DNA from: Heteronotia binoei
Lineage: Eukaryota
Direction of reading: 5' to 3'
DNA length: 64,000 nucleotides
Assembly: GCF_032191835.1 (NCBI RefSeq)
Contig: NC_083235.1
Coordinates: 46,376,001 to 46,440,000, forward strand
The notes under the pieces were generated by a model. The model was not told the origin of the DNA, made no database searches, and saw nothing but the letters and a program-made list of their open reading frames with translations. Below, piece after piece: positions 45,461-61,545 of the stretch. The translations under genes were made by a program, and so were the position numbers. Numbering within the stretch: position 1 is the stretch's first letter; each line of letters begins with the position of its first letter.

Positions 45461-45560
45461 GCAAGAATGAACAGGAACGCAGTTCCAGCTGGCTTGGCAC
45501 CAGGGGTGTGGCCTAATATGCAAATGAGCTCCTGCTGGGCTTTTTGTACAAATAAAGACC
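45461..45560. mobile_element. Octamer-containing MITE fragment
   Basis: Reverse complement of 31791-31920; ATGCAAAT at 45518-45525. Confidence 0.65.
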
Positions 45561-55262: not shown

Positions 55263-55527
55263 TGGCTTTCTTTATATATATATATTATAAAGCCTTCTAT
55301 TTTCTGTTATGAAAACTGCTCTTTGTTGATTTCTTACTCTGAATGTTGTCATCATTTGGTTTTTTAATCGATAGACCCCTGATCTATATCTATTACATGT
55401 GTCTTGAAGGAACTCAGGAGAGCATTGATGGTTCTCTGATTTCTTTTTTATTCTCACAACAATCTGTGTGTTAGATTGGACATACAGACATATGAAGCTG
55501 CCTTATACTGAATCAAACCCTCGGTCC

Positions 55528-55925
55528 TGTTGGAGCAAGAATCTACATAAACCCAGTCTGACAGCTACAGTATGACAGCTGGTGATCTAGCTGCCAGGCT
55601 AGGTCACAGTGACCTGATCAGCAGACCGGCTTGAGCCGGCAGAAGCCAAGTGATGCAATCTGCTGAGTCAGCATGGCCAGGATTGGCTGCTTGGACTATA
55701 TATGATCTGTGTGTGCATCACACAGGTCTCTCCCTGTGAGATGGTGGTTAGGCGAAGCACTTTGTCCGTGGAGGTGATATTGTATAGACTGCACAAGAGA
55801 GCACTTGTCGTGTATATATGTTAATACACCTTTTGGCACTAGTTGCACGTGTCGGCCTGATTTTCTTTCCTGAAGCCCTGTGTCGGGCAAGTCATCTCCC
55901 TCACTCTGCTACTCCCGCTCCGACA
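55528..55925 (+). repeat. 5' LTR
   Basis: TGTTGG...CCGACA; no difference from 59962-60359 found by eye, and the ORF track gives the same peptide at offset 4434. Confidence 0.97.
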
Positions 55926-55940
55926 GGGTTATGGGCCCAG
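55926..55940 (+). promoter_or_regulatory. Primer-binding site complementary to the 5' half of initiator tRNA-Met
   Basis: GGGTTATGGGCCCAG is the reverse complement of CTGGGCCCATAACCC, the anticodon arm of vertebrate tRNAiMet as recalled; the same PBS type as Drosophila copia. Confidence 0.9.
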
Positions 55941-56102
55941 GGCGGTTCCGCTGTGCGGAGGAGAGAGTTGAGAGTTGAGCTGACTGTGAGTTTGGAAAGA
56001 GCCGGAGGCGAGGAACGCCGGTGAAGGACACAGAAGCACCACCGTTCTCTGTTTGAGAGCCAGAGGGATGTCGGCAGCCAGCCGTGAGGAGGAGTCGGTA
56101 CG

Positions 56103-59100: not shown

Positions 59101-59984
59101 CAGTGAGCTACTACTTAGGGGTGGAAATAGCGAGGAGGGCCGATGGTTGTTTTGAACTGTCCCAGAGCAACAAAGTGAGAGCGCTGCTAGCTCAGTATGG
59201 TATGAACGAAGCTAGCAGTGTGCAAACACCCATGACCACAGGTTATAGCAAGGAACCTGAAGGTGAGATATTCAAGAATGTACCATTATACCAGTCCCTG
59301 ATCGGGTCCTTATTGCACCTAGCGTGCTGGACCAGGCCAGATATCAGCTATGCGGTACATATATTGTGCCAGAAAAATGCTGAACCCCACCACAAAGATT
59401 GGGTGGCGGCTAAAAGAGTACTACGTTACCTCAGCGGCACAATAGAACGTAAGCTATCCCTCAGAGTAGGAGAAAAACCTGAACTACGCGCCTATGCTGA
59501 CGCAAGCTGGGGGGACCGGCCCAAGGCAAAATCAACCACAGGAATTGGAATATTTCTGGGAGATGCCCTAGTAGTATGGAAAGCCACCAAGCAGACCCTG
59601 GTGGCATGTAGCACGTGTGAGGCAGAGTACGGTGCCATAAACGAATGTGTACTTAACCTAGAGTGGGCAGTACAACTGATGAGGGACTTTAGCATACCTG
59701 TAAATTTGCCAGTTTCAGTATATACTGACAACTCAGCAGCCAAAGAACTGACGGAGAACCAAGCTGCTCGAGGGAAAAGCAAGCATATACTTATCAGGTA
59801 CCAAAATGTGAAGGAAGCAGCGGCTAAAAACCTCATAAAAATAATAAAGTGTACATCGGATGAGAATGCCGCTGATATATTCACGAAATGTTTAACTGCA
59901 AGTGAACATGAAAACTGTGTAAAGTGTTTGGGTATACTGGGTTTAAATAGATTAGGAGGTGTGTTGGAGCAAGAATCTACATAA
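56103..59984 (+). CDS. Copia gag-pol polyprotein, 1293 aa (gag, CCHC knuckle, protease, integrase, RT, RNase H)
   Basis: CYGCGSSQHLLRAC knuckle; WILDSGATSH protease; HRRLGH...CQVC and LVHLDVIGP/QTDRGGEF/GLSER integrase; RLVARGFSQ...LYGLKQA...IFVDD RT; YADASWG/CEAEY/YTDNSAA/ADIFTK RNase H; no stops or frameshifts. Confidence 0.98.
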   Translation: MAQQQLGVAVEKLTSANYAVWSLRMQHYLKREGQWLFVSNPPADLSPAETVLSDKALANIVLSIGDDQLVYVRGQDTPKAAWDALSAVHVSTTAGSLMALTRRMFRTVMPAGGCVKDHIKRLTDCFVELEARGKTVAPDDRVYILLSSLPPEYTPLITSLETVDVATLTMEYVCAHLLDFQERIAAVSCPGVSAGQRAVIGVSGKTAKNEPAFAAGRRPKVEEVEPTAFAVRRCYGCGSSQHLLRACPEREKRRGRVRRERRTASPCEEATRLVTSAVESTGSAWILDSGATSHLCCEKELLKNIDSPEHKYVRLADGTTANSVCSGNVEFPALKCMLQNVLYVPSLQSNLLSVSTLFDQGYQVRFEKTCCKILGGGGKLLVTGKREGKLYVVQSDCAQVAQVSNEPVHNNCIHLLHRRLGHCGFRALKKTLELVPSLKVNPCKCYLDCQVCKKTKSKACAVAKESSRESTRALELVHLDVIGPLPKSLSGRRYCLVATDDHTRYAWVFTMVHKSEVYKTFTKWVKAVERQLGVNLLAVQTDRGGEFLSNQMKRWLENKGIAHRLTNPATPQEHGLSERTGAVLQTLMHSMLEDAKLPIRYWAEAMHCSAYVHNRVWCKPVNDLPYKRLYNHCPDLSFLRVFGTQAWVNIPLKHRRKGGDRAVSLTFLGYQPETKSYRFCDKRAKLTFSRSAGFSESSWARLHSTERDLGMLPSTDKNVGAQPRSPAQEVAPSGAGEGEPNPGTGPRVSARATKGIPPARYGFPSANQVSTPEPETYEEVLKLDSKERLAWFAAMQKEYDSLLKNRVFTEVLRPGNRNIISCRWTYRLKKDANGAVQRKARLVARGFSQRKGLDYQQVFAPTLKAETLRAALCKAGSTGQQAHHFDFETAYLNSPLDQELFMEQIPGFDGGSGVLKLNKALYGLKQAGHAWYKCLKSALMKVGFNQHLADPCMFSRVVGESRMIVLIFVDDLIVLVDSNQQLAWFQETASKLFTIKHLGPVSYYLGVEIARRADGCFELSQSNKVRALLAQYGMNEASSVQTPMTTGYSKEPEGEIFKNVPLYQSLIGSLLHLACWTRPDISYAVHILCQKNAEPHHKDWVAAKRVLRYLSGTIERKLSLRVGEKPELRAYADASWGDRPKAKSTTGIGIFLGDALVVWKATKQTLVACSTCEAEYGAINECVLNLEWAVQLMRDFSIPVNLPVSVYTDNSAAKELTENQAARGKSKHILIRYQNVKEAAAKNLIKIIKCTSDENAADIFTKCLTASEHENCVKCLGILGLNRLGGVLEQEST

Positions 59985-60359
59985 ACCCAGTCTGACAGCT
60001 ACAGTATGACAGCTGGTGATCTAGCTGCCAGGCTAGGTCACAGTGACCTGATCAGCAGACCGGCTTGAGCCGGCAGAAGCCAAGTGATGCAATCTGCTGA
60101 GTCAGCATGGCCAGGATTGGCTGCTTGGACTATATATGATCTGTGTGTGCATCACACAGGTCTCTCCCTGTGAGATGGTGGTTAGGCGAAGCACTTTGTC
60201 CGTGGAGGTGATATTGTATAGACTGCACAAGAGAGCACTTGTCGTGTATATATGTTAATACACCTTTTGGCACTAGTTGCACGTGTCGGCCTGATTTTCT
60301 TTCCTGAAGCCCTGTGTCGGGCAAGTCATCTCCCTCACTCTGCTACTCCCGCTCCGACA
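59962..60359 (+). repeat. 3' LTR
   Basis: Copy of 55528-55925 followed by the TSD GGTCC at 60360-60364. Confidence 0.97.
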
Positions 60360-61372
60360 GGTCCATCAAAGTCAATATTGTCTACTCAGACAGGTAGTGG
60401 ATCTCCAGGGTCTCAAGCTGAGGTTTTTCACGCCTACTTGCCTGGACTTTTTAGTTGGAATGCCAGGGATTGAACCTGGAACCTTCTGCTTACCAAGCAG
60501 ATGCCCTACCACTGAGCCACCATCCCTCCCCAGATTAGGGTGATCCTATGCAGAATTACTCCCATCTATGCTGACTCAAATCAAGAGAATGGAGAAACTC
60601 TGCAAAGGATTGCTTTGTCTTTGTCTGTGAGCTTCATAGGTGAGTGAAGGTCTAAATTTGAGTCTCCCCGATCTTAATGCAACACAGCTACACCACATTG
60701 GCTCTCTGAATGCCTTCAGCATGATTTATTGACAAAGGACTCGATCAGATTTAGGCTTCAATACAGTAGAATAAAAAGTACAGCTCACAGTCATATAATT
60801 CCTTGTATACTATACTGTAGTATAGGAAATATTCCTCATGCAGTCTCTTGAGTTGGGTACATCATCTCTAGGTTTAGTTCTGTAGCCTTTCTTTTATGTC
60901 TTCTTCTCAGTCACTTCTTTCATTTAAGAATGTACTCACACAGTTCACCATGGTGAGAAACCACAATTGTGTGTGGCTGGATTCACTCTTCCTAACCCTC
61001 AATTCAGGGAAAATTTTAATTATAAGTAAAACTCACAGGGATCAAATCTTAAACTATCTGCTCAGAAGTCACTCCAATGTTATTCAATAGGGTTTACTCT
61101 CAGGCAAATGTCCCTTGGATTGCAGCCACAGTAAACAATGTACATTTGAAAACGGCATTAACCATTACGTATTTCATACAAAGAAAGCTTCCATGAAGGA
61201 AATAATATGAAACACATTTGAAAATCCTCATGTGAGGATCACCTGTGCCCTTGTGTACACACAGAAATGTATACATGTTATTTTCACACTATTTTCTGGT
61301 ATTAATTTTCTGACATTAATTTTCACACTATTTCTGGTAACAGAATCTCTTCCACAATAACATAGATTTGAT

Positions 61373-61545
61373 CAGGGCTTTTTTTGTAGAAAAAGCTCAG
61401 CATGAACTCATTTGCATATTAGGCCACACCCTTGGTGTCACCATCATTTCACACAGGGCTTTTTTTGCAGAAAAAGCCAAGGAGGAACTTATTTGCATAT
61501 TAGGCCACACCTCCTGACACTAAGTCAGCCAGAACTGCAGTCCTG
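61373..61545. mobile_element. Two adjacent octamer-containing MITE fragments
   Basis: Two CAGGGCTTTTTT starts; ATTTGCAT at 61410 and 61491. Confidence 0.7.

Follow-up and report, generated by a model that had tools for sequence, protein, structure and literature searches.

Reverse transcription primed from the anticodon arm of the initiator methionine tRNA (tRNAiMet) is established for copia and Ty5 and has been inferred for fungal and plant copia lineages, according to PMC10886601, PMC10275265 and PMC6317226. The genus Hemivirus is defined on this mode of priming (PMC8515867), and the plant lineages Osser, Bryco and Gymco-II are listed as users of a 1/2 tRNA-Met (PMC10886601; PMC10275265; PMC6317226; PMC8515867). 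Retrotransposon primer-binding sites (PBS) are 8–18 nt long according to one review (PMC7773854). How much of the tRNA fragment is bound or copied in half-tRNA priming, in copia or Ty5, is poorly known. Tests on Ty5 reportedly found tRNA residues outside the PBS to be of little importance, and the 18-nt length of the retroviral PBS is set by a blocking tRNA modification. Elements primed by a fragment of tRNA-Arg(UCU) occur in Candida and include Tca2/pCal besides the gamma LTR. In Candida albicans, some of these families have an 'extensive region' of homology to an internal segment of the tRNA and others a short one (PMC4139406). Elements primed by the intact 3' end, Ty1 and Ty3, have a bipartite PBS with contacts beyond the core, including the D arm in Ty3 (PMC5371799, available part), and strictly inherit their own PBS (PMC7472051, section 4.3 as available). 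For mouse ETn, MusD and IAP the same section describes a common PBS that is mismatched to the tRNA and perfect PBSs scattered over the tree, and proposes a 50:50 inheritance of the primer copy.

Within the window, by which we mean the whole 64,000-nt stretch of Heteronotia binoei DNA that was analysed (contig NC_083235.1), lies a young Ty1/copia element whose LTRs are identical over 398 bp (Table 1). The two TG...CA LTRs and the 5-bp target-site duplication are those of Ty1/copia elements (Pseudoviridae), as is the gene order, with integrase before a copia-type reverse transcriptase (RVT_2) and no env, for which there is no room because the gag-pol ORF extends into the 3' LTR. The C-terminal part of this ORF gave no Pfam match, and RNase H is assumed there. 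The PBS is complementary to an internal anticodon-arm segment of tRNAiMet and not to its 3' end, as in the definition of Hemivirus (PMC8515867), a likeness that here means PBS complementarity only, the gag-protease tree described below holding elements of the host genome alone. The element is thus like Drosophila copia and yeast Ty5 in its Ty1/copia architecture and its tRNAiMet anticodon-arm PBS, and differs from them in that the site of its clade reaches the D-arm, is 31–32 nt long and is found in a vertebrate. Among long copies of the family, 84/99 share a common internal pol deletion, whose size came to about 1.1 kb in most cases where it was determined, and have mostly identical or near-identical LTRs; these deleted copies form a non-autonomous lineage that outnumbers the full-length copies. 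Elsewhere in the window (45495–45560 and 61373–61511) are dispersed short repeats in direct and inverted orientation, probably the ends of host SINEs or LINEs, which we take to resemble squamate repeats.

Table 1. Features of the copia element, in window coordinates
Feature	Position	Strand	Remarks
Target-site duplication, left copy, 5 bp	55523..55527	+	identical 5-mer at 60360–60364
5' LTR, 398 bp, TG...CA	55528..55925	+	sequence identical to 3' LTR
U5 box	55902..55910	+	complement of tRNAiMet nt 1–9; also predicted 5' strand of a stem with 55955–55964
Core PBS, 15 nt, abuts LTR	55926..55940	+	complement of tRNAiMet nt 26–40 (sequential numbering)
Spacer, 5 nt, opposite tRNA nt 21–25	55941..55945	+	positions 1, 2 and 5 of the window copy depart from the exact complement; polymorphic in the family
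D-arm box, best read as far end of a 31-nt site	55946..55956	+	complement of tRNAiMet nt 10–20; one G.U in the window copy
Purine-rich leader strand	55955..55964	+	predicted intramolecular partner of the U5 box region; two-sided compensatory change absent
gag-pol ORF, single, 1293 aa	56103..59984	+	order gag, protease-type beta-barrel, integrase, RT (Retrotran_gag_2, Pol_BBD, rve, RVT_2)
Purine-rich stretch, likely polypurine tract	59946..59959	+	just upstream of 3' LTR; role inferred from sequence
3' LTR, 398 bp	59962..60359	+	identical to 5' LTR
Target-site duplication, right copy, 5 bp	60360..60364	+	repeats 55523–55527

An earlier note on this DNA had proposed that the PBS pairs with nt 26–40 of tRNAiMet and that two further boxes, in the leader and in U5, pair with its D-arm and its 5' end. 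We searched the 2.63-Gb host genome and found five genes that are complementary to all three boxes in the proposed register. ARAGORN assigned all five to tRNA-Met(CAT); four are identical and the fifth (L002) differs at one spacer-facing base. Alignment to these genomic genes agreed with the proposed pairing of the 15-mer that directly follows the 5' LTR. The 14-mer core of the PBS has 2011 exact matches in the genome, compared to 1 when the 14-mer is reversed as a control. Two sampled copies have a different base directly behind the LTR, and the primer may end at nt 39 or at nt 40.

The in-register D-arm box, placed by the earlier note at 55946–55953, is real and conserved; however, it is not a separate box. 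The match spans 11 nt rather than 8, taking in nt 10–20 of the tRNA, and is often continuous with the PBS. The one G.U pair of the window copy, at 55954, is replaced by a Watson-Crick base in 118 of 119 sampled family copies (this sample was picked by allele and is not random), and the genome holds 313 exact 30-mers of the continuous PBS-to-D-arm site, 4 of which are tRNA genes. Chance gives a poor account of the match, as none of 121 scorable unrelated metagenome PBS loci reached 9/11 matches and the best had 8. The D-arm box is therefore best read, from these alignments, as the distal end of a single 31-nt primer site corresponding to tRNA nt 10–40, and the conserved complementarity would indicate a primer that covers at least nt 10–39. 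A second conserved primer-complementary segment recalls the multipartite PBS of Ty1 and Ty3, but there the extra segments are separate and accompany priming by an intact 3' end, whereas in the window's clade the extra contact shares the register of the core and often joins it without a break. For an extended half-tRNA site, the closest precedent is provided by the Candida tRNA-Arg elements, in which long and short internal-tRNA sites parallel the long and short clades described below; those elements differ in tRNA and in kingdom, and in the available part of their description (PMC4139406) there is no length, modification boundary or primer inheritance.

For a census, we clustered the window copy, the first 100 PBS sites on contig 1 and ten additional ones. 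Of the 35 clusters, 24 had enough ORF for a gag-protease tree, which divides them into two clades with support of 100/100, the tool warning of one long branch. In the first clade, that of the window element, the 14-mer begins one purine after the LTR, and 67 of its 74 sites (75 before the exclusion of L033) have at least 9/11 D-arm matches in register. In the second clade a 2-nt gap separates LTR and 14-mer, and the D-arm box is present at 0/25 sites. Some copies of this box-less clade have identical LTRs and full ORF coverage, which shows that anticodon-arm priming can do without the D-arm box in this host. The young copia families of the second clade (L034, L082, L095, L098, L099 and their kin) have the 2-nt gap, a 14-nt PBS and no D-arm box, and a predicted stem between U5 and the leader closes their PBS.

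We also searched beyond the host. Viral contigs gave 0 matches to the PBS plus D-arm box. A metagenome set of 123 loci was collected with a zero-gap pattern from 4/64 parts of the collection; their own tRNAs may differ, and not all are confirmed copia. In five of these loci (L135, L136, L185, L210 and L231) the anticodon-arm PBS lies between an upstream A-box-like and a downstream B-box-like motif, which we take to be tRNA-like A and B boxes, possibly of Pol III-driven miniature elements akin to Helenus. Related elements also occur in assembled contigs of RNA runs from three organisms in two studies, contigs that give no expression level or spacer ratios.

The distribution of the D-arm box bears on whether it has any present role. 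It could be a neutral relic, left by a single ancient primer read-through, and its absence from young families of the same genome and from almost all the metagenome elements, as well as its shift or loss at 7/74 sites of its own clade (clusters 29, 30 and 33), would agree with this. However, the box is kept at 10–11 of 11 matches in families that share 37–44% protein identity with the window element and have unrelated LTRs, and the adjoining spacer is still changing in copies with identical LTRs. We consider a relic highly improbable, as the conservation of the D-arm box disfavours it. Read-through to tRNA nt 1 was found in no family copy; the 7 matches to such a sequence were the 5 tRNA genes, one variant tRNA-like copy and L033.

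Hundreds of near-identical copies make this family a natural experiment on half-tRNA priming, and the 5-nt spacer between core PBS and D-arm box is where the copies differ. Our family census comprised 641 copies that match a pattern with a free spacer, in which the first three bases of the D-arm box were required and copies altered there were excluded. The tRNA-type bases are present at both spacer positions 1 and 5 in 123 copies, and 99 of the 100 such copies listed are the exact tRNA complement. In another 81 the tRNA type is confined to the far end (70 at position 5, 11 at positions 2 and 5), while it is confined to the near end in 0/641, and 0/641 have A or T at position 1. The remaining 437, obtained by subtraction, appear to be of the window type, as were all 73 of them in the first 100 rows. 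The background rate of bases other than the commonest is 0.45% per site (39 family copies), so that three independent substitutions cannot yield an allele present in 19% of copies.

The exact tRNA allele occurs in four subfamilies, at 74–100% protein identity to the window element, whose own spacers differ and which keep their subfamily-specific flanks. Among the first 100 of 167 sister-subfamily rows, both ends are of the tRNA type in 30 and the far end alone in 2, and no row has the near end alone; the other 68 keep G at position 5, and their position 1 is G, A or T but in no case C. The clade that lacks the D-arm box serves as an internal control, and there spacer conversion was absent from all 25 sites. 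Copies with the exact allele (28/119) share rare alleles at 0.167, compared to 0.171 at random, that is, they do not cluster by lineage; copies with the position-5-only allele share rare variants slightly more often than random ones do (p=0.03, the same 119 copies). SNP linkage in the family is weak (3/231 pairs significant), which makes the absence of clustering a weak test; the linkage test was limited to −399 to +1450 to avoid confounding by the shared internal deletion. All four main spacer alleles are present in both full-length and internally deleted copies. In short, alleles exactly complementary to the primer appear repeatedly, in different lineages of a family whose site is mismatched, which is the signature of retrovirus-type inheritance, within the limits that weak SNP linkage sets on the test. 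Because the exact allele recurs in four subfamilies without lineage clustering, the primer sequence is likely inherited, and the pattern of alleles suggests that this copia family, unlike Ty1, probably takes up primer sequence while mismatched spacers persist. PBS inheritance from the primer is likewise ascribed to mouse ETn/MusD/IAP, HIV-1 and MLV, but these are Retroviridae, primed by the tRNA 3' end at an 18-nt site, whereas the PBS of the window family matches the anticodon arm; compared to Ty1 and Ty3, it appears not to inherit its own PBS strictly.

The two spacer types might instead have their origin in an ancient polymorphism that spread as co-packaged RNAs recombined, or in acquisition from families with a perfect site, in either case without copying of the tRNA. 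The family is indeed mosaic, as its weak SNP linkage shows, a sister subclade with the perfect spacer is a possible donor, and there is some lineage signal in the far-end-only allele. We nevertheless find this origin improbable: the same exact allele sits in four subfamilies between their own flanks on both sides, the C that follows directly after the box in the donor families is found in 0/119 sampled copies, and the reciprocal products of recombination, with the near end only, are missing from the family and from the listed sister rows alike. Several other indicators were tried and rejected. The base of the variant tRNA gene L002 was found in 0/100 listed converted copies; in three sister-subfamily cases a base of the L002 type was present, which we rejected as a fingerprint because it is confounded with CpG decay. 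Misincorporation at a modified G26 was rejected as a source of the variants, given that 0/641 copies have A or T there, and singletons as an age proxy for the exact allele were set aside, being spoiled by one outlier copy.

The reading that we favour is templating by the primer. We think it likely that this young copia, with its PBS matching tRNA nt 10–40, has a reverse transcriptase that copies the 5' tRNA half to m1G9, thereby writing tRNA bases into the spacers of many insertions. Human tRNAiMet carries m1G9, m2G10 and m2G26, with no m2,2G26 reported in the available part of PMC7293042, where m2G is said to escape RT-based methods and methylation of G9 is considered as a block to RT; by eye, the probes printed in that part match the host tRNAiMet gene. 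On the human map, from which the host may differ, reverse transcriptase that copies the 5' half from nt 39–40 would therefore reach about G10/G9. In the window's subclade the complementary stretch ends at nt 10, in most sister families at nt 9 and in three clusters at nt 8. The site thus ends at G9/G10, where m1G9 would stop the enzyme.

Under primer templating, a tRNA 5' fragment ending at nt 39–40 would anneal to the core PBS and the D-arm box and prime the minus strand. Plus-strand strong-stop DNA would then pass m2G26 and halt at m1G9, giving a 31-nt tail, and the D-arm box might act as the landing site for the 3' end of this tail at the second strand transfer. A mismatched spacer would at that point give a heteroduplex that could be resolved to either allele. 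The lack of converted spacers in the 25 sites of the clade without a landing box is what copying would predict. The model rests on genomic copies and on the human modification map.

Because conversion ratchets one way and yet mismatches persist in at least five subfamilies, converted copies would be poorer parents, a selection that we infer from the persistence of the mismatches. In the window's subclade the cost would probably be the loss of a short stem between U5 and the spacer; such a stem, pairing the LTR end with spacer positions 3–5, is predicted in several subfamilies. An alternative cause could be escape from silencing by tRNA fragments, as has been proposed for mouse ERVs (PMC7472051, section 4.3 as available).

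The one-sided partial alleles are partly unexplained by copying. They run contrary to early stops of either strand, which predict the opposite polarity, and could result from strand-biased repair of the plus strand or from propagation of a few partial lineages. Partial alleles are rarer in the sister subfamilies (2 seen compared to 12.6 expected, P=0.0003), and this scarcity favours propagation, at least in part.

The third box has a different standing. The U5 9-mer is, as the earlier note had it, an exact complement of tRNA nt 1–9. Sister families in which the D-arm box is kept lack it, and it is restricted to one subclade. Young copia families of this genome, whose anticodon-arm PBS stands without either of the extra boxes, also speak against a general need for three. 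Besides its LTR copies, the 9-mer has two more in the window (4 matches compared to 0.76 expected), which makes it the weakest of the three matches. Its run length was equalled in 6/1000 shuffles of the same U5. A complementary run of 7–9 nt at a fixed distance from the LTR end is confined to the window's subclade (support 99/98), with shuffle p of 0.006–0.035 for six clusters and 0.095 for a seventh. Within this subclade, an older family (L341–L344) retains the core of the U5 box and has a 7-nt D-arm match displaced by 2 nt.

The U5 box is also complementary to the purine-rich strand just 3' of the D-arm box. Each of the ten pairs of this stem holds in 31–33 of the 33 distinct copies compared, about half of which belong to one subfamily, and no two-sided compensatory change was found among them. 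The sister families have other U5 sequences that are predicted to pair with the same leader position. The fold of the window region is no better than that of shuffles (z=0.17), and z falls below −2 in only 3/17 tested fragments. The U5 box more likely serves mainly as one strand of a stem inside the element RNA.

It could instead be that tRNA nt 1–8 also pair with the U5 box, so that the 5' half is wholly held and the mismatched spacer acts as a hinge. The run keeps its place through a subclade of about 50–100% protein identity, and the subclade that has the U5 box also has the mismatched spacer, which amounts to a single transition. The U that forms a U.G wobble in the internal stem suits A4 of the tRNA and is kept in 32/33 copies; predicted helix energies are close (−12.3 kcal/mol for U5 with the tRNA, −14.0 kcal/mol for the internal stem); and a change at 55903, seen in contigs of two RNA runs, remains G.U-compatible. 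Against these points, the U5 box is missing from the sister subclade that has the D-arm box and from 25/25 sites of the other clade. The positions that pair with the tRNA only (nt 8 and nt 1) are the least conserved, kept in 28/33 and 27/33 copies, compared to 31/33, 33/33 and 32/33 for those that pair only inside the element RNA. Furthermore, an occupied 31-nt site does not free the U5 box in folding models (mean unpaired probability 0.19–0.34), m1G9 is unable to pair, and the helices would cross, with a 15-nt linker having to span a duplex. ViennaRNA cannot represent crossed helices, so that co-folding, which gave no U5–tRNA pairing, is no evidence on the crossed three-helix form. Weighing these, we hold a wholly bound 5' half to be rather unlikely, and place the U5 box–tRNA contact itself on the same, doubtful footing. 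In its fullest form the proposal, which we regard as unlikely, is that a crossed three-helix junction of U5 box, D-arm box and core PBS binds roughly the whole 40-nt tRNAiMet 5' half, that selection maintains the mismatched hinge in the spacer although the primer constantly rewrites it, and that the U5 box switches from its internal stem to the tRNA 5' end when the primer is loaded. If such a junction were real, the genome would record, copy by copy, the length of the primer, the m1G9 stop and the repair of the heteroduplex.

Two tRNA-like sequences were met along the way. L033 (1440–1545; contig 1, about 45.54 Mb) holds a decayed copy of tRNAiMet nt 1–40, with a 35/40 match, flanked by direct repeats of 26–29 bp. 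We rejected its interpretation as an LTR end followed by a complement of the whole 40-nt tRNA half and a repeated 'U5 tail', as there is no copia protein within 7 kb; the 'tail' is an unrelated repeat, found at two other places without the insert, and is not evidence of a jump at the U5 box. The tRNA copy sits inside that repeat and ends at nt 40 like the PBS, and it may be a retrocopied 5' half; its end point may also reflect internal priming, one related target site resembling the tRNA complement. The L068:1469–1540 region holds a tRNAiMet-like copy that is altered at one point in or near the anticodon loop.

Anticodon-arm priming as such is already known. What appears to be new is a 31-nt site bounded at G9/G10, recurrent rewriting that is likely primer-templated, and a mismatch that persists in spite of it. 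Neither a 31-nt tRNAiMet site in a vertebrate copia nor primer inheritance in copia was found in the literature searched, with Repbase and most subscription papers outside its scope, so a prior description is possible. The data indicate that a copia-type element can inherit the sequence of its primer, contrary to the rule stated for Ty1, and m1G9 may set the length of the PBS in the window's clade. The mismatch has survived conversion of 19–30%, which points to a cost of perfect pairing, for example in RNA folding or in silencing by tRNA halves, and the natural alleles of this family allow that cost to be studied.
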